Shown: positions 4,844 through 56,437, counted from the first letter of the stretch. The stretch: DNA of 64,000 nucleotides from Undibacterium sp. (GCF_043726505.1 NZ_JAYSKH010000265.1), one strand, 5' to 3'. A program made the numbers and translations. Notes: generated by a model not told the origin, from the letters alone.

Positions 4844-5995
4844 TTAGCGCGTGACGGTAATCAGCTCACGCTTGCCGCTCTTGTACGTATATAAGGTCAA
4901 CGTGCCGTCGCGGATATCGCCGTGCTCGTCAAACGCGATATTGCCGGTAATGCCCTTGTACTGGATGCTGGCCAGCGCCGGCAGGTATTTGGCAGGTTCA
5001 GATGATCCCGCTTTCTGCATTGCGGCTACTACCGTCATCACGGCGTCGTAGGCATACGGCGCGTTCAGCACTACAGGGTGGCCGAACTTTTTGCTGAAGT
5101 CGGTTTTGAATTTTTCCAACCCACCTTTCATGCCCTCCTCCACGCCGCCGGCTTCCGCGCAGACAATCTTGCCTTCACCCAGCGCCTCGCCAGCCAGTTT
5201 TGCCAGGTCGGTCGAGCAGATGCCGTCGCCTCCCATGAATTTGGCTTCTATGCCCAGCTGCTGCATCTGGCGCAGCATAGGGCCGCCTACCGCATCCATG
5301 CCGCCGAAGAAAATCAGGTCAGGCTTTTTGCCCTTGATTGTCGTCAGGATGGAGTTGAAATCGGTAGCCTTGTCTGTTGTGTACTGGCGCGGCAGCATCA
5401 ATACGCCTTTTGATTTTCCGGTCGCACCCTTGATGAACTCATCAGCAACGCCCTGTCCGTACGAAGTGCGGTCATCGATGACGGCAATCGTCTTCGCCTG
5501 CGTTACCTGCACTGCATAGCGGCCCAGCGTACCGCCCAGCTGGCCGTCATTGGCGACCACGCGGAACGCCGTATTAAAACCCTGCTGCGTATATTTAGGA
5601 TTGGTGGCAGAAGGAGATATCTGCGGGATGCCGGCGATATTGTAAATTTTAGATGCCGGTATCGTGGTACCCGAATTCATGTGGCCGATGACGGCGTTGA
5701 CCTTGGCGTCCACCAGTTTTTGCGCCGCTGTCGTCGCCTGCTTGGGATCGCTGCCATCGTCTTCCGCTACCAGTTCAAACTTTGCCTTCTTGCCACCTAT
5801 CGAGATATTTTTCGCATTCAGTTCATCGATAGCCATGCGGGCGCCGTCTTCGGTATCCTTGCCCATGTGGGCGGATGGCCCGGACAACGGGCTGACATGG
5901 CCTATCTTGACCAGAAGATCTTCGGCAAACGCACTTCCCTGCCATGCCAGCATGATGGAAGCGACGATGGGTAAAACGCAGATTTTGGCATTCAT
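4844..5995 (-). CDS. Branched-chain amino acid ABC transporter substrate-binding protein (BraC/LivK-like)
   Basis: Signal peptide; KIGHVSPLSGPSAHMG, EDDGSDP, GHMNSG, SPSATNP, DDRTSYGQG. Confidence 0.92.
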   Translation of the reverse strand: MNAKICVLPIVASIMLAWQGSAFAEDLLVKIGHVSPLSGPSAHMGKDTEDGARMAIDELNAKNISIGGKKAKFELVAEDDGSDPKQATTAAQKLVDAKVNAVIGHMNSGTTIPASKIYNIAGIPQISPSATNPKYTQQGFNTAFRVVANDGQLGGTLGRYAVQVTQAKTIAVIDDRTSYGQGVADEFIKGATGKSKGVLMLPRQYTTDKATDFNSILTTIKGKKPDLIFFGGMDAVGGPMLRQMQQLGIEAKFMGGDGICSTDLAKLAGEALGEGKIVCAEAGGVEEGMKGGLEKFKTDFSKKFGHPVVLNAPYAYDAVMTVVAAMQKAGSSEPAKYLPALASIQYKGITGNIAFDEHGDIRDGTLTLYTYKSGKRELITVTR

Positions 5996-6173
5996 GGTTC
6001 TCTCGGTCCTGGTATATTATTAAAATGGAAAGCCGCCGCGGCGGGTACGATAGTCTGCATTTACCCAAGGAAAATGCAGAACTTCGGAGTCCATTTTTCT
6101 ACCAAGCCTTAAACCGCACAAACCATGTTTTCTATACAGATGCATTAGAAAATCTAATACCGGACTTACAGCA

Positions 6174-47493: not shown

Positions 47494-48198
47494 CTAGCTC
47501 CAGCGGCGGCCGGGTAGTTGTTGTACAGATTTTACTGTTACATCTATGCAAGCGGCAGATTTTTTTGACCTGCCCGGCCTGGGCGGCCGCGGCAGGTACT
47601 GCGTCACCAGCACGGTGCGCATGCCCATTTGCTTGGCCGCCCGCAGGTTGGCTACGGTATCTTCCACCAGTACGCAGCGGCCGGCAGCCACGCCCAGCCT
47701 GGCCAGCAGCTTGCGCAGGTAGCCTCGTGATGGCTTGGGGCTCAGCCGGCGGTGCACGCGCATGTCTTCAATGGGGATATGTTCGGCAAAGTGGCGATGC
47801 AGGCCAATGTGGCGCACAACATCGCGCGCGTACTTGCGCGGCGCATTGGTCAGCAATATCTTGCGGCCCGGCAGCCGGCGGAACAAGCCGCCCAACCCTC
47901 GTTCAGCCCGTATCATGGCCGGCAGGTCTGGAAAGCTATGCGCCTCGTGTAGGAAATCGTCGGCGTCGACGCTATGGTGCTTGATGAGCCCCATCAGCGT
48001 CGCGCCATAGCGTTGCCAGTAAAGCAGCCGGGCAGCATCTACCGTCGCCGCATCCGCCGGGTTGACGCCATCCCCCAGTACCCTGGCCATGTACGCATTC
48101 ATATTGACGTTTACCGCCGGAAAAATGGCGTGCGACGCGTTATGCAGCGTATTGTCGAGGTCAAACAGCCAGACCGGGCCGGAACGCTTGGATTTCAT
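47494..48198 (-). CDS. Pyrimidine 5'-nucleotidase-like HAD hydrolase
   Basis: WLFDLDNTLH, LLTNAP, PKP, LVEDTVANL. Confidence 0.88.
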   Translation of the reverse strand: MKSKRSGPVWLFDLDNTLHNASHAIFPAVNVNMNAYMARVLGDGVNPADAATVDAARLLYWQRYGATLMGLIKHHSVDADDFLHEAHSFPDLPAMIRAERGLGGLFRRLPGRKILLTNAPRKYARDVVRHIGLHRHFAEHIPIEDMRVHRRLSPKPSRGYLRKLLARLGVAAGRCVLVEDTVANLRAAKQMGMRTVLVTQYLPRPPRPGRSKKSAACIDVTVKSVQQLPGRRWS

Positions 48199-48259
48199 CG
48201 GAGTATGGAGTGCGGCAGCACGGCAACACAAGCTGCCGATGCTGCCAGATAGACAAAGC

Positions 48260-49183
48260 CTAGTGGCTGCGTATCATCGTGCCGAACGCTTGTTCGGTCA
48301 GTACTTCCAGCAGCAGCGAATGTTCGATGCGGCCGTCGATAATGTGCACTGTGTTGACACCCGATTTGGCGGCATCCAGCGCCGACGAGATTTTTGGCAG
48401 CATGCCGCCGGAAATGGTGCCGTCGGCAAACATCTCGTCAATCTCGCGCGCCGACAGATCCGTGACCAGATTACCCTGCTTGTCCAGCACGCCGGGGATG
48501 TTGGTCATCATGATCAGTTTTTCAGCTTTCAGGATCTCGGCGATCTTGCCGGCGACCACGTCAGCGTTGATGTTATACGCCTGGCCGTCGTCACCGAAGC
48601 CGATAGGCGAGATGATGGGAATGAAGGCATCATCCTGCAGCGCCTTGACAACCGCCGGGTTGATCGCGTCGATCTCGCCGACGAAGCCGATATCGAGGAA
48701 GTTGCCAGGATTTTCGCGGTCGGGCATCTTCAGCTTGCGCGCGCGGATCAGGCCGCCGTCCTTGCCGGTCAGGCCCACTGCCTGGCCGCCGTAATGGTTG
48801 ATCAGCATGACGATATCCTGCTGCACTTCACCGCCCAAGACCCATTCCACCACTTCCATGGTTTCTTCGTCGGTAATACGCATGCCCTGCACAAAAGTGC
48901 CCTGCTTACCCACTTTTTTCAGTGCATTGTCGATTTGCGGGCCGCCGCCGTGCACGACCACAGGGTTCATGCCGACCAGTTTCAGCAAAATCACATCGCG
49001 CGCAAAACCGTGTTTCAGCCGTTCTTCGGTCATTGCGTTGCCGCCGTATTTGACGACGATGGTTTTTCCGTGAAATTTACGGATATACGGCAGCGCTTCA
49101 GCTAGAATCTCTGCCTTGATCTCGGGAGCAACGGAAGCCAGTTTGTCTATCGGCGCCGTTTCGGTATCGGTTGCATTGCTCAT
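48260..49183 (-). CDS. argB: Acetylglutamate kinase
   Basis: [34 protein letters not shown]. Confidence 0.97.
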
Positions 49184-49319
49184 AAGGTATCCTGATGTCC
49201 TGATTAAGGGTCTTCTTGAAGGTCTTTAATTCAATTTTCAGGATTTTACAGGGAAACAGCGCAAGTTTCTTTGCCCGACACAGGTATTTCAGGCCGCAAA
49301 CTTTCAATAATTTGCTCAA

Positions 49320-49889
49320 ATGACATCTAGCGAAACACTTTACTTGCAACTGGAGGCGATGCGCCCCGCGCTGTTGCGCTTTGCCCTGCTGCAATTACGC
49401 AACGACACACTTGCCGAAGACGCCGTGCAGGATGCATTGCTGGCAATTCTGGAAAAACCGGACAATTTTGCCGGCCAGTCTTCATTGCGGACTTATGTCA
49501 TAGGCATCCTGAAATACAAAATCATCGATTGCCTACGCGCCTCAAGCAAGGAAAAACAGTTGCAGACCGAAGATGATGAATCCGAGGCCGACCTGATCGA
49601 CAGCCTGTTTTCCGCCGACGGCCATACCAACGAAATGCCAAGGGCCTGGGGCGACCCGGATGCGACGCTGGAACAGAAGGATTTTTTCCGTGTCATGGAG
49701 GTATGCCTGGAAAAGTTGCCGGCCAAGACTGCGCGGGTTTTCTTGATGCGCGAGTGGCTGGATTTGGATACCGAAGAAATTTGTAAGGAATTGCAGCTGA
49801 CTACGTCTAACGTATGGGTAGTTCTGTACCGCGCACGCTTGCGGCTGCGGGAATGCCTGGATTTGAACTGGTTCGGCAAACAAGCCTAA
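49320..49889 (+). CDS. ECF sigma-70 factor (TIGR02943-like)
   Basis: AEDAVQDALL, SSLRTYVIGILKYKIID, VFLMREWL, EEICKEL..TTSNVWVVLYRARLRLRECL. Confidence 0.9.
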   Translation: MTSSETLYLQLEAMRPALLRFALLQLRNDTLAEDAVQDALLAILEKPDNFAGQSSLRTYVIGILKYKIIDCLRASSKEKQLQTEDDESEADLIDSLFSADGHTNEMPRAWGDPDATLEQKDFFRVMEVCLEKLPAKTARVFLMREWLDLDTEEICKELQLTTSNVWVVLYRARLRLRECLDLNWFGKQA

Positions 49890-49911
49890 TGATATAAATT
49901 GCAGGAAATAT

Positions 49912-50115
49912 ATGCTGATTCGACTCACATGCAAGGAAGCACACCAGATAGTCTCCGAGGGCCTGGACCGGGACCTCGGCGTATTCGTGCGCACACGGCT
50001 GCGCCTGCACCTCAGCGTGTGCGACGCTTGTACCAATTTTAACGGACAGATGCAGACCATACGCCAGGCGATGCAGAAAATGAAATTTGAAGATCCGTTT
50101 TCGCCGGAACCCTAA
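49912..50115 (+). CDS. Soluble zinc-finger anti-sigma factor (zf-HC2/ZAS)
   Basis: TCKEA...HLSVCDAC (HxxxCxxC); 67 aa, no TM; follows the ECF sigma. Confidence 0.9.
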   Translation: MLIRLTCKEAHQIVSEGLDRDLGVFVRTRLRLHLSVCDACTNFNGQMQTIRQAMQKMKFEDPFSPEP

Positions 50116-50151
50116 GCTGGAACCCTACGGCCGGAGCCTTAATACCGCACC

Positions 50152-50373
50152 ATGAGTACTTGTCCGCGCTGCAACGCGCAATTTACCTGCTGCATGGCAG
50201 GCCAGACCGGCAAGGATTGCTGGTGCGGCGCCATGCCCAGACTCAGCCTGGCAGACTTGCCAGCTACCCGTATCGCTATCCCGCAGGACGCCAGCTGCTA
50301 CTGCCCTGACTGCCTGCGCGCATGGAAGGCGGAGCGGGACGCCGCCGCGCAAAACTCCACCCAAAATCCATAA
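50152..50373 (+). CDS. Cysteine-rich CWC family protein
   Basis: CPRC...CC...CWC...CYCPDC; 9 Cys in 73 aa. Confidence 0.85.
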   Translation: MSTCPRCNAQFTCCMAGQTGKDCWCGAMPRLSLADLPATRIAIPQDASCYCPDCLRAWKAERDAAAQNSTQNP

Positions 50374-50525
50374 CAAAATGTCGTAAGTCAGGCCTGCACG
50401 GCCAAGCCGGGGCAACGACTGCCCATTTCAGTTACCATAGGCACGTTTACATAAAATAATATCCATTCCGCCGCTGCGGTGAGACGCGCCTGACAGGACA
50501 TGGATACACACCACCGGAAGCAAGC

Positions 50526-51227
50526 ATGCCTACCAACCTGACTCCAGTCGATACGCCCATCCCTATTTCCCAACGCATACGCGAACGCATACAGGCGAAA
50601 AAAACGCGCTTCCATGCAAACGACAATATCGCGCAATTCATCGAGCCGGGCGAACTGGACCAGTTGCTGGACGAAGTGGAACAAAAACTGAAGGGCGTGC
50701 TGCAAAGCCTCGTCATCGATACCGACAGCGACCACAATACGCAGGACACTGGCCGCCGGGTCGCCAAGATGTTCATCAATGAGGTGTTCAAGGGCCGTTA
50801 TGTGCCGATGCCGGCCGTCACCGAATTCCCAAATGCGTCACGCCTGAACGAACTGATGATCATCGGCCCTATCACGGTACGCAGCGCCTGCTCGCACCAC
50901 CTGTGCCCAATTATCGGCAAGGTATGGATAGGCGTGATGCCGAATGAGCACTCAAACCTGATCGGCCTGTCCAAATATGCGCGCATCGCCGAGTGGATCA
51001 TGAGCCGGCCGCAGATACAGGAAGAGGCGGTCGTGCAGCTGGCTGACACGCTGCAGGAAAAGATGCACCCGGATGGCCTGGCCGTCGTCATGGAAGCGGA
51101 CCATTTCTGCATGCACTGGCGCGGCGTGAAAGACATGGACGCCAAGATGATCAACAGCGTAATGCACGGCTCCTTCCTCAAGGATCCGAACCTGCGCCGC
51201 GAATTCCTGGCGCTGATCAAGCGCTAG
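50526..51227 (+). CDS. folE: GTP cyclohydrolase I (zinc-dependent FolE type)
   Basis: DTGRRVAKMF, SACSHHLCP, GLSKYAR, RPQIQE, HFCMHWRGV. Confidence 0.95.
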   Translation: MPTNLTPVDTPIPISQRIRERIQAKKTRFHANDNIAQFIEPGELDQLLDEVEQKLKGVLQSLVIDTDSDHNTQDTGRRVAKMFINEVFKGRYVPMPAVTEFPNASRLNELMIIGPITVRSACSHHLCPIIGKVWIGVMPNEHSNLIGLSKYARIAEWIMSRPQIQEEAVVQLADTLQEKMHPDGLAVVMEADHFCMHWRGVKDMDAKMINSVMHGSFLKDPNLRREFLALIKR

Positions 51228-51306
51228 CCTGCGCCTGTCGGTATAGGTTTACACGCGACAATGCAAAGCAGTACGATCCAGTAAAAAACAATGCGAGGAG
51301 AGCAAC

Positions 51307-51732
51307 ATGCTAGTCAGATTACTTTACGCCAGCCGTGCCGCAGACAAGAAGCTCTGCGACGTGATCGCCGACATCATGCAGCAGTCGCGCACGCATAACC
51401 CGAAGAACGGCATCACCGGCATACTGTGCCATAGTGACAGTGTGTTCATGCAGGTACTGGAAGGCGGGCGTGACGCCGTCAATACGCTGTATGCGCAGAT
51501 ACTGAAGGATCAGCGCCATACCGACGTGATACTGCTGCACTATGAAGAAATCATGGAGCGGCGCTACAGCGGCTGGACCATGGGCCAGGCCAACCTGGGC
51601 AAGATTAATCCATCCATTCTGCTGAAGTATTCCGACCTGCCTGAGCTGAACCCGCATGCGATGTCGGGCAAGATGTCGCTGGCGCTGGTGGAAGAGCTGA
51701 TCGCCACCGCGTCCATCGTCGGACGGACTTGA
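51307..51732 (+). CDS. Stand-alone BLUF blue-light photoreceptor
   Basis: LLYAS (Tyr), SRTHNPKNGITGIL (Asn), FMQVLEG (Gln), DQRH, WTMG (Trp/Met); no output domain. Confidence 0.93.
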   Translation: MLVRLLYASRAADKKLCDVIADIMQQSRTHNPKNGITGILCHSDSVFMQVLEGGRDAVNTLYAQILKDQRHTDVILLHYEEIMERRYSGWTMGQANLGKINPSILLKYSDLPELNPHAMSGKMSLALVEELIATASIVGRT

Positions 51733-52664
51733 CCCGCCCCTCGCTGGCATCGCAGCTCGATAGCTATCTGGCCCGCAAGACACTGGCCGGGCGGGCGCAA
51801 GCCGCACTCAGCGCGGAATCGCTAGCCTACCTGGATACCCCGCAGGGCCGTCTGCGCCTGTTCGACAGCGGAGAGAATACCGGGCACCCAAGACCCTGTG
51901 TGATCTTTACACCAGATGGGCCGAATGTCATCGAACATTACTGGCCGCTATTCCAGCTGTTGCAAGACGACTTCCGCATCGTTTGCTTTGATATGCCCGG
52001 CTTTGGTTTTTCCATGCCTGCCGCCTCTTACCAGCATAGCCTGGACCAGGGCGCGCAAACCGTGCTGGATGTAATGGACGGGCTGAATGTTCCGGTTGCG
52101 ACACTGGCGTTCAGCTGCGCCAACGGCCTGTATGCGATGCAGGCCGCCCGTAAGGCGCCACAGCGCATCCTCAGTCTGTTCCTCGCGCAAACCCCTTCGC
52201 TGGCAGCCATGCATGCGTGGACAGGCCGCATGATACCGTGGCCACTACGGGTGCCGGTGCTGGGCCAATCGCTGGCCTGGGTGCTCAGGAAAAAACTTGC
52301 GCATGGCTGGTACCATAGTGCACTGCCTAAAGACACGGACAAGGAGCCGTTCCGCCAGATTGCAGGCCATGCATTTGCGACAGGCGGCTGTTTTTGCCTG
52401 GCCGGTGTGGTACAGGGCCTAGTGAAGGAAAGTCCGGATGCGATGCATGCCATCAGCACACCCTGCACGATGCTGTGGGGCGGCCTCGACAGGTCACACC
52501 GGCAGACCGTGCCGGAATCATTGCTGGACCACGTACCGCATGCAGAGATCATCCGCTTCGATGATTGCGGACATTTTCCGGAAGTCGAACAGCCTGAACG
52601 CTATGCGCAGCTGTTGAAGGCGCATGTGGATAAACTATCAGGGAACGCAGTCATCGCTGGCTAG
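51729..52664 (+). CDS. Alpha/beta-fold hydrolase with atypical nucleophile elbow
   Basis: FDMPGFGFS, AFSCANG in place of GxSxG, LWGGLD, CGHFPEVEQP; TTG start overlapping the BLUF stop. Confidence 0.82.
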   Translation: MTRPSLASQLDSYLARKTLAGRAQAALSAESLAYLDTPQGRLRLFDSGENTGHPRPCVIFTPDGPNVIEHYWPLFQLLQDDFRIVCFDMPGFGFSMPAASYQHSLDQGAQTVLDVMDGLNVPVATLAFSCANGLYAMQAARKAPQRILSLFLAQTPSLAAMHAWTGRMIPWPLRVPVLGQSLAWVLRKKLAHGWYHSALPKDTDKEPFRQIAGHAFATGGCFCLAGVVQGLVKESPDAMHAISTPCTMLWGGLDRSHRQTVPESLLDHVPHAEIIRFDDCGHFPEVEQPERYAQLLKAHVDKLSGNAVIAG

Positions 52665-52684
52665 CGATGGCTAACTCTTCGCGC

Positions 52685-53173
52685 TCAGTGCGCCAGCTTC
52701 TTTTTTGCAGTATCGATCGCATCATCCAGATACGCGCCATAAAAATCTTCCAGCAAGGCGCCGACGATGGGTGGCGCCAGTGCATTGCCCTGTGCATCGA
52801 GAAATAGTACGGTAGGGGCAGCTTTGACCGCATACGCCGCCGCCAGTTGCCGCTGGCTGACAGGCTTGCCATCAAAACCGCTGATGATGGTTTCGCTATC
52901 GATATACACCTGCCGCACGATGGCTCCCTGCTTGCTTAGCGGCACCAGTTGCTGGCGTCGCACCTGTTCGCAATATGGGCAATCCGGCAGGCTGACGATC
53001 AGGATCAGCGGCATGCCCTGCTTGGCGGCGGCCATGGCTTCCTGCCGCAGATCAGTCGCAGCGGGTAGCGGTGTTTCCTTTGCCATCGCTGACATGGCCG
53101 GCATCACCCACATCAGGCACAGCGCCGCCAGCAGTAGCCACTCTGTTTGCCAGTGTGTGCGCCGACTCAACAT
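52685..53173 (-). CDS. Periplasmic thioredoxin-like protein (SoxW-like)
   Basis: Signal peptide, CPYC, TPTV-like APTVLF; last gene of the sox operon. Confidence 0.8.
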   Translation of the reverse strand: MLSRRTHWQTEWLLLAALCLMWVMPAMSAMAKETPLPAATDLRQEAMAAAKQGMPLILIVSLPDCPYCEQVRRQQLVPLSKQGAIVRQVYIDSETIISGFDGKPVSQRQLAAAYAVKAAPTVLFLDAQGNALAPPIVGALLEDFYGAYLDDAIDTAKKKLAH

Positions 53174-53175
53174 GC

Positions 53176-54915
53176 TCAGTTCCCCTGACCAGGCGCGATG
53201 CCGGGGTTGCCACGCGCGCCCTTGATCTTAGGCTGGTTCAGCGTGCGCGTGCCGACCTGCTTCTGCGACTTCAGGTAACGCGCCATAACGTCCCATATCG
53301 GTTCGCCGCTGGCGCCTTCGGCCACCGGCGCCCAGCCGGCAACCTTGTATTGCTTGCCCGCCTCTATCGCCTTGCCGGCCAGCCGCATGTCGCTGATGCG
53401 CCCGCCCATCGTCGCCACCGGATCTATCGTATATTGCAGGCCGCCCACGCGTACCATATCGCCGCCCTGCTGGTAATACGGATCGGGATTAAACAGATTG
53501 TCGGCCACGTCTTCCAGGATGGTCTTGATAGTGTCGCCGCTCATCATCGTCACCGTTGTATACGGATAGGTGATCGCAGTCTGGTCCATCAGGTGTTCCA
53601 TCGTGATGGTCTGGCCGGGCAGCAACGATGTGCCCCAGCGGAAGCCCGGCGAGAATGCGATCTCGGCATTTTTCTCGGCCATCAGGCCATCCAGGATCAA
53701 CTGGTCAAAGCTGCCGTTGAAATTACCGCGCCGGTACAACAGGCCTTCGCTGACGGCCAGTTCTTCCGCCAGTTGTGGCGCATATGGCGCGCGCAGTTTC
53801 GTAATCAGCGCCTGCATGTCGTGGTCGGCCGGCAGCATATTGGCAAACACCGGCAGCAGCTTGTAGCGGAAATCGCTGACCTTGCCGTGCACGACATCAA
53901 AATCCAGCACACCGAGGAATTTGCCGTTGGAGCCGGCATTGGTCACCAGCGTCTTGCCGCCGCCATTGCCCACAATGACGGGGGCAGGCACACCGTCATG
54001 CGTATGCCCGCCCAGAATGGCGTCAATGCCGGTAACGCGGCCTGCCATCTTCACATCCACATCCATGCCGTTGTGGCTGAGTACAACCACCACCTGAGCA
54101 CCCTTGGCGCGCGCGTCGTTGACAGTGGCCTGCATTTCTTTTTCCTGGATACCGAAGGTCCAGTCGGCGACCAAATAACGCGGGTTGGCAATCGGGGTAT
54201 ACGGGAAGGCCTGGCCTATGATGGCCACCGGCACACCGTTGAGCTGTTTGATCACATAGGGCGTAAATACCGGATCGCCAAAATCGTTGGTCTTGACGTT
54301 CTGTGCGACAAAATCGATCTTGCCGGCCAGATCCTTGGCGATAATTTCTTGTACCCGCTTATCGCCCAGCGTAAATTCCCAGTGGGCCGTCATCACGTCC
54401 ACACCCAGCAGCTTGCAGGCTTCGACCATGTCCTGGCCTTTGGTCCACAGCGCGGTGGCAGAACCCTGCCAGCTGTCGCCGCCGTCCAGCAGCAGCGCTT
54501 GCGGCCTGCCGGCTCGCAGCTGTTTGACCAGCGTGCTTAGATGGGCGAATCCGCCAACCTTGCCGTAAGTTTTTGCTGCCTGCGCAAAATCCAGATAGGT
54601 GAACGCATGCGCATCGACGCTGCCGGGCCGTATGCCGTAAGCCTTCAGCAGCGCCTCGCCAACCAGATGCGGTGGCTTGCCGAACTGGCCACCCAGACCC
54701 AGATTGACATCAGGTTCACGGAAGTACAGTGGGTTAAGCTGCGCGTGGCAGTCGGTGAAATGCAGCAGATGCACGTTGCCGAAAGACGGCAATCGGTACA
54801 TGCCGCCGTCAGCGGCGTCGGCTGCGTCAGCGCCGGCCGCGGATGCATACCTGGCCAAAGGCAAGCCGGCAGCAGCGCCTGCTGCCAGCATCTGTAAAAA
54901 TTCTCGCCTGTACAT
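53176..54915 (-). CDS. soxB: Thiosulfohydrolase SoxB
   Basis: Tat signal RREFLQ; HFTDCHAQL, GGDSWQG, HWEF, LSHNG, GGHTHD. Confidence 0.96.
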   Translation of the reverse strand: MYRREFLQMLAAGAAAGLPLARYASAAGADAADAADGGMYRLPSFGNVHLLHFTDCHAQLNPLYFREPDVNLGLGGQFGKPPHLVGEALLKAYGIRPGSVDAHAFTYLDFAQAAKTYGKVGGFAHLSTLVKQLRAGRPQALLLDGGDSWQGSATALWTKGQDMVEACKLLGVDVMTAHWEFTLGDKRVQEIIAKDLAGKIDFVAQNVKTNDFGDPVFTPYVIKQLNGVPVAIIGQAFPYTPIANPRYLVADWTFGIQEKEMQATVNDARAKGAQVVVVLSHNGMDVDVKMAGRVTGIDAILGGHTHDGVPAPVIVGNGGGKTLVTNAGSNGKFLGVLDFDVVHGKVSDFRYKLLPVFANMLPADHDMQALITKLRAPYAPQLAEELAVSEGLLYRRGNFNGSFDQLILDGLMAEKNAEIAFSPGFRWGTSLLPGQTITMEHLMDQTAITYPYTTVTMMSGDTIKTILEDVADNLFNPDPYYQQGGDMVRVGGLQYTIDPVATMGGRISDMRLAGKAIEAGKQYKVAGWAPVAEGASGEPIWDVMARYLKSQKQVGTRTLNQPKIKGARGNPGIAPGQGN

Positions 54916-54952
54916 GGCTGCTCCGGAGGAAGGGAAGGAACCCGCTCTACCT

Positions 54953-55606
54953 TTATTGGTTCACTGGCGATTTTGGATCAAGCAGCAATGCAACCAGGTC
55001 CATGATTTGGGCCTGCGTCAGTATCTTCTGATGGCCAAAGCGCGGCATGTTGGAGCATGCCGAAAATGCCTGCGCGTTATAAATCTTCTTGTACGTGTAT
55101 TCGGCTATTTCCTTACCCTGCCCACGCAGCTTGCCGTAGTTGTACAGCGAAGGGCCGATATTGCCATAGGAAATTTCCTGAGGTGCAATCTGGTGGCACG
55201 CATAACAATTGCCGCCGCCGACATCGCCAGCCTTGTCGCTGAAGGTCAGGCCGCGCCCGTTCTGTGCAATCTTCTCGCCTTCCTTCCAGTTACCGGCAGG
55301 CTGGCCCGCCGCAGGCATGACGATGGCAGATAACTGCGCCTTCTCTATTTTGTCAGCAATGTCCTTCGGTACTTCCTTGCCTGCGTATTCGGTGCAGATG
55401 CGTTGCAGCTCATCTTGCGTCAGCCTGTCGATGGAGGCAATGCCGCTGGTCACGAAAGAAGCCTTCATCGATTCCTGCGCCAGCCTGGCAGCTTCCGCAT
55501 TCGACATGGTACCCCCCGTACTGCCCATACCGGCGCAACCAGCCAAAGCAGCCACTGCTGCGATCAGCACGGCGCCTGCCATTGATATATTTTTCTTGTT
55601 CATCAT
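54953..55606 (-). CDS. soxX: SoxX cytochrome c
   Basis: GGNCYACH, GNIGPSL, CSNMPRFG. Confidence 0.94.
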   Translation of the reverse strand: MMNKKNISMAGAVLIAAVAALAGCAGMGSTGGTMSNAEAARLAQESMKASFVTSGIASIDRLTQDELQRICTEYAGKEVPKDIADKIEKAQLSAIVMPAAGQPAGNWKEGEKIAQNGRGLTFSDKAGDVGGGNCYACHQIAPQEISYGNIGPSLYNYGKLRGQGKEIAEYTYKKIYNAQAFSACSNMPRFGHQKILTQAQIMDLVALLLDPKSPVNQ

Positions 55607-55621
55607 GATCTCGCTTCCGGC

Positions 55622-56437
55622 TTAACGTTTGAGAGCGGGCGCATTATAGGTCGCGCCTTCGGCATTCTTTGCCAGGAACATCGTCAACGCAGTAATCGCA
55701 TCGGACGTGTACAGAGGCTCGGGGAAGCGCTGCTGGCGGAAACAGTCGTTCAGCCTGTGCTGCATCGTGCGCACCTCACCCTGCGACACACGGTAAGCAG
55801 GCCACGTCGCATACGCTTCGCGCGCATCCTTGGCGTTGGTCAGATCAGGCAGATACTGCAGCCGTATACGCTTGTCCGGCGCGCCATGGCAGGTCGCGCA
55901 GGAAAAATCGTAAGGACCGGCACGGTAATAAAAAATCTGCTGCCCTATCGCATAGGCTTCTTTCTCCTTGGGATGCGACAGCGGCGTTGCCATCTTCATG
56001 CCGCGCGACTGCTCGGTAATATAAGCTGCCAGCGCCTCCATGTCCGAAGGTTTTCCGGGCGATGAGAAAGGATTTTTCTTCGCATCCGCTACGCTCATGC
56101 CCTGCAGGCTCATCATGCAAGTCACTAGCCGCGACTCCAGATCCTGCACCATCCTGGTGTCGTCAAAGTAACGCGGCAGTTTGACGTAGGCGCCTGCCAC
56201 CACGCCCGGGCCAACGCCGAGATCACATTTCTCCAGGCTGACCTTGTTCGGGCCACGCGGCGTTTTCCACAGCGCTTCACCCTTCATTTCGGATAGCTCG
56301 GCTGGATTGTCGCCGGCTAACATGTCGCGGTATTTGGCCAGCGGATCATCCTTGCCCTGCTGCGCGCACGCAAACTGCGCGGTGGACGACATCACCAGCA
56401 TCGCCATCGCCAGGATCAGCCTGTTGATCGTTTTCAT
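55622..56437 (-). CDS. soxA: SoxA (monoheme type)
   Basis: Single CATCH motif; N-terminal Cys pair (SLEKC, LVTCM); RLNDCFRQQR active-site Cys. Confidence 0.94.
   Translation of the reverse strand: MKTINRLILAMAMLVMSSTAQFACAQQGKDDPLAKYRDMLAGDNPAELSEMKGEALWKTPRGPNKVSLEKCDLGVGPGVVAGAYVKLPRYFDDTRMVQDLESRLVTCMMSLQGMSVADAKKNPFSSPGKPSDMEALAAYITEQSRGMKMATPLSHPKEKEAYAIGQQIFYYRAGPYDFSCATCHGAPDKRIRLQYLPDLTNAKDAREAYATWPAYRVSQGEVRTMQHRLNDCFRQQRFPEPLYTSDAITALTMFLAKNAEGATYNAPALKR

Follow-up and report, generated by a model that had tools for sequence, protein, structure and literature searches.

A strictly paired folE–BLUF unit behind an ECF sigma/zinc anti-sigma operon in Undibacterium: a candidate light-and-pterin module

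A 64,000-nucleotide stretch of DNA (GCF_043726505.1, NZ_JAYSKH010000265.1; the whole of it is called the window below) belongs to Undibacterium (Oxalobacteraceae), as judged from homologues of its sigma factor and a genome scan, and the nearest relative is Undibacterium sp. TJN25 with 96% sigma identity. Between positions 49320 and 52664 the window carries six genes, which code for an extracytoplasmic function (ECF) sigma factor, a zinc-type anti-sigma factor, a cysteine-rich CWC protein, GTP cyclohydrolase I (FolE), a short BLUF sensor and an alpha/beta-fold hydrolase. Comparison with relatives divides this run into three layers: a sigma/anti-sigma/CWC operon, a folE–BLUF pair that is strictly kept in many other contexts, and a hydrolase gene found in a few loci. 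The favoured explanation, held with moderate confidence, is that the run is a composite of these layers in which folE and BLUF would form a direct light–pterin module, joined to the sigma operon in Undibacterium. The features concerned are listed here in window coordinates.

49320..49889, plus strand: ECF-type sigma factor, 189 amino acids, sigma2 and sigma4 regions only (Pfam Sigma70_r2, r4_2)
49912..50115, plus strand: minimal zinc-type anti-sigma factor, 67 amino acids (Pfam zf-HC2, NCBIfam NF052368)
50152..50373, plus strand: cysteine-rich CWC protein, 73 amino acids, 9 Cys (Pfam PF14375, 29.6 bits, cut-off 24)
50408..50440, plus strand: bipartite conserved element 5' of folE, candidate promoter or operator (comparison of Undibacterium sequences)
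50526..51227, plus strand: GTP cyclohydrolase I (FolE type IA), 233 amino acids (Pfam PF01227)
51307..51732, plus strand: short PixD-like BLUF sensor, 141 amino acids, effector-less (Pfam BLUF)
51729..52664, plus strand: alpha/beta-fold hydrolase, 311 amino acids with a TTG start (Pfam Abhydrolase_6/1)

The pairing of folE with BLUF is the most constant feature of the system. A BLUF-anchored scan of metagenomes gave 80 loci, 68 of which included enough upstream DNA for the presence of folE to be judged. folE was found upstream and on the same strand in all 68, within 200 nucleotides (nt) in 66 of them and at 203 and 234 nt in the other two. When contexts were anchored on FolE instead, BLUF was directly downstream in five of five (Caldimonas, Aquabacterium, Herminiimonas, Actimicrobium and Massilia B-10). 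FolE relatives with at least 79% identity belong to Undibacterium, Massilia, Herminiimonas, Actimicrobium, Caldimonas and Aquabacterium. Outside Undibacterium, folE stop and BLUF start lie a median of 12 nt apart, with at most 35 nt between them in 77 of 83 cases. The pairing held in every locus examined (more than 100), across at least nine unrelated neighbourhoods. The BLUF subfamily itself is narrow, with about 20 representatives (50% clustering) at E <= 1e-30. In Massilia sp. B-10 (L175, CP087970), the BLUF gene was uncalled but is detectable at 5695–6090, and many split genes suggest that this assembly is rich in frameshifts.

The surroundings of the pair vary. In Herbaspirillum RTI4 (L087, 5137–8750), a gene for a 338-amino-acid MerR-type regulator is followed by folE–BLUF, a DUF2389 gene and an amine-oxidase-like gene, an arrangement that resembles LitR-type light regulons; the C-terminal half of this regulator has no domain assignment. 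In Massilia TS11, genes for a DUF2256 protein, a photolyase and a photolyase-related protein come first and folE–BLUF closes the operon, and in a metagenome bin the pair follows a GST gene and a PNPOx-like gene. Linkage to MerR-type or photolyase genes was seen in the first two of these genomes only. No match to a sigma factor, anti-sigma factor, CWC protein, hydrolase, MerR-type regulator or photolyase was found within 4 kb in the 80 metagenome loci, and neither these 80 nor eight genome contexts have the sigma module beside folE–BLUF. Just one neighbour recurs, a DUF429 gene, which stands directly 3' of BLUF at 22 of the 86 loci outside Undibacterium (for example L165, 1878–2732). A PNPOx_N-like (FMN-binding) gene was also noticed directly 5' of folE–BLUF in two unrelated records (L089, 5365–6186; L175, 3970–4760). 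folE–BLUF would be a self-contained light-and-pterin module that is widespread in Burkholderiales.

Sensor and enzyme motifs are intact in the two proteins. The BLUF protein matches PF04940 over its full length (E = 3e-30) and has no effector domain. Its best solved relative is TePixD 1x0p (E = 7e-22; query residues 2–132 on chain residues 3–137), with SyPixD also among the best, and the alignment to PixD extends through the C-terminal helices, as expected of a short BLUF protein of the PixD type. The photocycle residues Y7, Q49, W90 and M92 are present and invariant across the aligned BLUF relatives, and the C-terminal tail ATA(S/A)I(V/I)GR is invariant as well. The protein is a predicted PixD-like blue-light photoreceptor. 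FolE matches Pfam PF01227 with E = 3.8e-43 and 147 bits (cut-off 27). When aligned to 4du6, it retains the Cys/His/Cys zinc ligands, the catalytic His and the substrate-binding Glu, Ser, Lys and Arg, together with the motifs CSHH, HFC, QIQEE, LSK and WRG; the active site is predicted to be largely intact. Profile searches bore out every gene identity proposed in a sequence-only reading of this DNA, that of FolE through Pfam, including the nine-cysteine CWC protein, the HxxxCxxC anti-sigma factor and the effector-less BLUF protein.

Since a short BLUF protein must work through a partner and FolE is its only constant companion, direct light-dependent control of FolE is proposed, in which the PixD-like BLUF protein would bind FolE and blue light would alter GTP cyclohydrolase I activity. 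PixD itself (Slr1694/Tll0078), with which the protein shares its size, C-terminal helices and photocycle residues, acts by light-dependent assembly and disassembly with its partner PixE, a PATAN-CheY response regulator for cyanobacterial phototaxis. Unlike PixD, the BLUF protein has an enzyme, FolE, as its constant neighbour, and its hosts are non-phototrophic Burkholderiales. GTP cyclohydrolase I is a D5 decamer, and in mammals it is capped by pentameric GFRP (1is7/1is8/1wpl), a small five-fold regulator that tunes its activity. The PixD decamer consists of two pentameric rings and dissociates in light (PMC5812497). The five-fold symmetries of PixD rings and of the FolE decamer would thus be compatible, and GFRP serves as a working analogy for BLUF on FolE that rests on this symmetry; GFRP differs in being unrelated to BLUF, in sensing BH4 and phenylalanine rather than light, and in being eukaryotic. 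In its most detailed form, in which rings of five BLUF subunits would cap the FolE decamer in the manner of GFRP and gate the first step of pterin and folate synthesis by blue light, with the Undibacterium module additionally under a thiol-sensing ECF sigma factor, the proposal is tentative and rather doubtful. The link from light to pterins is in itself supported, and only for Undibacterium is it plausible that redox and light signals converge. The product of FolE would feed folate, including the methenyltetrahydrofolate (methenyl-THF) antenna of photolyase, and other pterins. The purpose of such control may be to supply that antenna (folE–BLUF closes a photolyase operon in Massilia TS11) or to limit photosensitising pterins in light.

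The first layer was followed through a survey of Oxalobacteraceae comprising 80 loci. The sigma/anti-sigma pair lies beside a divergent argB in all 80, the sigma relatives being 71–96% identical and in the same position throughout, and synteny in the family extends over the whole slmA-HAD-argB-sigma region. The sigma factor matches Pfam Sigma70_r2 at residues 12–76 and r4_2 at residues 127–176, and it scores 295 bits with NCBIfam NF009173 (cut-off 255) and 251 bits with TIGR02943 (cut-off 162). It has the make-up of an ECF sigma factor, with sigma2 and sigma4 only and an adjoining zf-HC2 anti-sigma gene 22 nt downstream. The zf-HC2 protein is, from its conserved adjacency, the predicted cognate anti-sigma factor. 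It scores 61 bits with NF052368 (cut-off 50) and falls below the cut-off of the RsrA model (24 against 62.5 bits). Its zinc motif is H33-x3-C37-x2-C40 plus C7, and C7, H11, H33, C37 and C40 are invariant in 80 of 80 distinct orthologues (62–101 amino acids), an RsrA-type set of ligands in a protein that has no sensor domain. By eye it has no hydrophobic stretch and appears to be cytoplasmic.

Eight cysteines of the CWC protein (C4, C7, C13, C23, C25, C49, C51 and C54) are invariant in 60 of 60 orthologues. Its gene was found in at least 65 of the 80 loci by a strict cysteine-pattern regular expression, and tblastn added three; the loci that seem to lack it belong mainly to a Noviherbaspirillum group. 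Often it overlaps the anti-sigma gene by 4 nt. A PDB sequence search with the two small proteins returned nothing significant. The genes that follow the trio vary by genus and include, in Duganella, a hybrid histidine kinase and an HD-GYP regulator.

Two well-known systems offer comparisons for this layer. RpoE-ChrR (ECF11) responds to singlet oxygen and controls photolyase and photo-oxidative stress genes, and SigR-RsrA (ECF12) responds to disulphide stress; not all zinc anti-sigma (ZAS) proteins are redox sensors. The Undibacterium pair resembles both in combining an ECF sigma factor with a cytoplasmic HxxxCxxC anti-sigma factor, here with the RsrA-like ligands C7, H33, C37 and C40, and differs from both by the extra eight-cysteine CWC gene in the operon. 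The short anti-sigma factor lacks a C-terminal cupin and has zf-HC2 as its sole domain match, and is therefore not ChrR-like. Assignment of the sigma factor to ECF18 was also considered and could not be made, as the ECF18 anti-sigmas have been described as RskA-like (PMC7826278) and the one found here differs. A link between the SigR regulon and folE was considered, found no confirmation in the literature searched and was dropped. The first layer would then be a family-wide operon in which an ECF sigma factor is held by an RsrA-like minimal zinc anti-sigma factor, accompanied by the eight-cysteine CWC protein, and its most likely trigger is a thiol-oxidising or metal signal in the cytoplasm. 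In the argB–sigma intergenic region, a block GATTTTACAG(G/C) at 49243–49256 is kept family-wide (L001–L080). It reads TGTAAAATC on the argB strand, where it resembles an extended -10 of the promoter of that gene, and it is not an ECF promoter for sigma.

Within the same 80 loci, folE–BLUF follows the CWC gene only in Undibacterium, and does so in every Undibacterium locus sampled, where the five-gene order from sigma to BLUF is kept throughout. The DNA 3' of BLUF is rearranged within the genus, with a sox cluster in the clade of the window and BON/SIS genes in L085. The second layer would have arrived directly behind the sigma operon in the Undibacterium ancestor and been retained since. In the window, the convergent genes on the minus strand at 52685–56437 are a thioredoxin-like gene and then soxB, soxX and soxA, for sulfur oxidation, and thioredoxin-like/sox genes also flank the locus in L001–L004, not in other Undibacterium such as L085.

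The hydrolase forms the third layer. The survey shows its gene in just three loci, those of the window, L002 and L004, and L081 is the only further locus that has it; neither gene nor remnant was found in L003 or in the closest relative (L001, 96% identical). NCBIfam gave only weak, PcaD-like matches, and the relatives of solved structure are generic esterases and hydrolases of meta-cleavage products. The 4-nt overlap with the BLUF stop (TTGA) depends on a TTG start. The orthologues start at an ATG (MLAS.LD.YL) five codons downstream (L002 8092, L004 10417, L081 3780); since that codon is TCG in the window (51729–51760), the TTG overlapping the BLUF stop is the sole start left. The hydrolase is best read as a late addition that would have joined in one sublineage, outside the conserved mechanism.

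The sequence-only reading had taken all six genes as one candidate light- and redox-stress system. The part that stood is the light–pterin connection, as the BLUF–folE link proved strict across contexts. The six genes did not emerge as one conserved system: the neighbourhood survey resolved their order into three layers with different distributions, the junction between the sigma module and folE is confined to Undibacterium, and the hydrolase, with four loci and its absence from L001, drops out. Its description of the run itself was accurate, in that the open reading frames match exactly in strand, coordinates and spacers (22, 36, 152 and 79 nt in order, then a 4-nt overlap). It had also seen no convincing intrinsic terminator inside the run, and a consensus scan agrees, giving a single weak hairpin at 50410–50424 with a 5-bp stem and a poor T tract; terminator-like sites are not enriched (three observed against 4.5 +/- 2.0 in shuffles). 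The 152-nt spacer was considered as a riboswitch or RNA family and rejected, no Rfam family matching at E <= 1 over 48000–54000. Since co-orientation of six genes is common in itself, the significance of the run was judged by comparison, which yields the three layers.

A conserved element precedes folE. The 12-nt block TTCAGTTACCAT (window 50427–50438) is identical in 25 of 25 distinct Undibacterium sequences, and 14 nt 5' of it stands an invariant C (50413), with purines, mostly AA, at -15/-16. Among Undibacterium, neither the flanks nor the distance to folE (24–90 nt) nor the frame with respect to the CWC stop is constant; the conservation is at the DNA level. The element, which overlaps the weak hairpin, is a candidate internal promoter or operator, and its geometry fits either an ECF-like AAC-N17-GTT, an arrangement typical for promoters of ECF sigma factors, or a sigma-70-like GAC-N18-TACCAT. 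It has no second exact copy in the window and was not found 5' of folE in other genera; the idea that it travels with folE there was dropped.

Other readings of this element were also rejected. It is not the CWC C-terminus or the end of a small open reading frame, as its frame differs relative to the CWC stop and TAG becomes TTG or TTA in four loci. Nor is it taken as the -35 of a sigma-70-like promoter in the window (TTACCA-N17-AATAAT), as the -10 of that promoter is not conserved in other loci. In one Undibacterium subclade (L048, L064, L066, L072 and L073) a near-copy, CAATTCAGTCACCAGACTT, lies 5' of the sigma gene, 2 nt before the start codon in L064, L066 and L072 (7985–8003); the similarity reaches a few bases past the element, as if a segment of about 30 nt had been duplicated. 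Sigma autoregulation through the same element holds in this subclade and not in the window.

In Undibacterium, transcripts of folE–BLUF would arise by read-through out of the sigma operon, would start at the conserved internal element, or would come by both routes. Several Undibacterium species are packed more tightly than the window, with a 4-nt anti-sigma/CWC overlap, 9–30 nt between CWC and folE and 12 nt between folE and BLUF. These gaps are too small for a terminator, so that transcripts of the sigma operon would hardly stop short of folE there. A sigma-70-like promoter 5' of BLUF (51248–51277) was rejected for want of conservation; the folE–BLUF spacer, 12–111 nt in Undibacterium, is not conserved, and BLUF therefore has no conserved promoter of its own. 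A search for a transcriptome of the organism itself found none. Two near-identical 151-nt contigs from a freshwater-sediment metatranscriptome (run X19) are 97–99% identical to folE (window 50544–50823), and the window organism or a near-identical one thus transcribes folE in nature.

Several points weigh against the favoured explanation. Contact between BLUF and FolE is proposed from the pairing of their genes, and no genuine FolE–BLUF fusion was found in the representative protein library; the sole candidate (P0414, 268 amino acids, the C-terminal half of FolE plus BLUF) is garbled internally and looks like a frameshifted contig. FolE lies under the cut-off of all four NCBIfam FolE models (for example 156.5 against 181.6 with TIGR00063), a Ser replaces the Glu that adjoins its first Cys zinc ligand, and its exact reaction is assumed from the family. 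The upstream element was not found 5' of the sigma gene in the window or in other genera with the same sigma factor, and an element-like score 5' of the sigma gene exceeds the 95th percentile of background in only 7 of 23 Undibacterium loci; being scarce 5' of the sigma gene and absent from other genera, the element is only weakly assigned to this sigma factor, and may instead serve an unlinked regulator as its operator. In the lineage of the window the spacers have grown to 152 nt (CWC–folE) and 79 nt (folE–BLUF), and the X19 contigs lie inside folE, none of them spanning a gene junction.

The main rival, itself rather doubtful, holds that BLUF is a transcriptional signaller that sequesters a repressor or an anti-sigma factor in light, with folE as its co-transcribed main output. 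Such sequestration is exemplified by PmSB-LOV/PmlR2, BluF/BluR, AppA/PpsR and PixD/PixE, and known short photoreceptors do act in this way (PMC9758184; PMC5812497). The nearest precedent is found in Pseudomonas, where the short LOV sensor PmSB-LOV and the class II LitR protein PmlR2 are encoded beside a folM-folE-folX operon, folE is light-induced 2–3 fold and the LOV sensor works via a partner protein (PMC9758184). The statement in the sequence-only reading that folE belongs to light regulons thus has a real precedent in this light-induced operon. As in the BLUF loci, an effector-less flavin blue-light sensor gene adjoins the gene for GTP cyclohydrolase I. The Pseudomonas sensor differs in being a LOV protein that is not co-transcribed tail-to-head with folE, its demonstrated partner is a LitR/MerR repressor and no ECF sigma factor is involved, whereas folE–BLUF is a strict two-gene unit and LitR is unlinked in most loci. 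The MerR-type gene directly 5' of the pair in Herbaspirillum RTI4, the closing position in the Massilia TS11 photolyase operon and the position after an anti-sigma gene in Undibacterium, where BLUF could act on the adjacent zinc anti-sigma factor or on the CWC protein, all suit a transcriptional role. They are set against the absence of a MerR, sigma or anti-sigma match within 4 kb in the 80 metagenome loci; as no regulator is consistently linked, the partner of a transcriptional BLUF protein would be unlinked and different in each lineage. Neither a LitR-like nor a photolyase gene was found in the 64-kb window, tblastn giving no match to the L087 MerR-type protein or to the L088 photolyases. 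Strict one-to-one pairing with a 12-nt median gap is, moreover, more typical of co-acting proteins.

It is unlikely that the junction between the sigma module and folE–BLUF is inherited synteny without function, the pair having landed once in the Undibacterium ancestor with its own promoter, independent of the ECF sigma factor, and the conserved element being read by a housekeeping sigma factor or an unlinked regulator. Position alone can persist by descent, as the family-wide slmA-HAD-argB-sigma synteny indicates, folE–BLUF is mobile among many contexts elsewhere, and the element suits sigma-70-like GAC-N18-TACCAT and is not generally found 5' of the sigma gene. In several species, however, the CWC stop lies inside the element or about 10–30 nt from it or from folE, so that sigma transcripts would enter folE unless invisibly terminated, and the junction has been retained while the DNA 3' of BLUF was rearranged. 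Least probable is one operon and regulon of all six genes, the hydrolase included, in which light sensed by BLUF and thiol-redox inputs through the anti-sigma and CWC proteins jointly control pterin synthesis: the shared strand without a convincing internal terminator, the constant sigma-to-BLUF order in sampled Undibacterium and the overlap of the hydrolase start with the BLUF stop speak for it, but the hydrolase is missing from the closest relative, the sigma module lacks folE–BLUF at this locus in all other Oxalobacteraceae genera surveyed, folE–BLUF does without the sigma module elsewhere, and the conserved internal element implies separate control of the pair.

A photoreceptor gene beside folE is already known from the LOV sensor of Pseudomonas (PMC9758184). 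A literature search found no paper tying BLUF to GTP cyclohydrolase I, folE or pterin synthesis in the way proposed here. Short BLUF proteins are common and their partners are mostly not known, and comparative genomics gives one unambiguous candidate for this subfamily, FolE. If the BLUF protein acts on transcription, the Undibacterium arrangement would be a candidate light-modulated ECF sigma/zinc anti-sigma circuit. If BLUF rings sit on FolE, this would be the first natural light-regulated folate/pterin enzyme and a new class of BLUF output. Direct control of FolE by BLUF, if true, would offer optogenetics a compact natural switch for a metabolic enzyme, and would mean that non-phototrophic freshwater and soil bacteria tune their pterin and folate supply to light.

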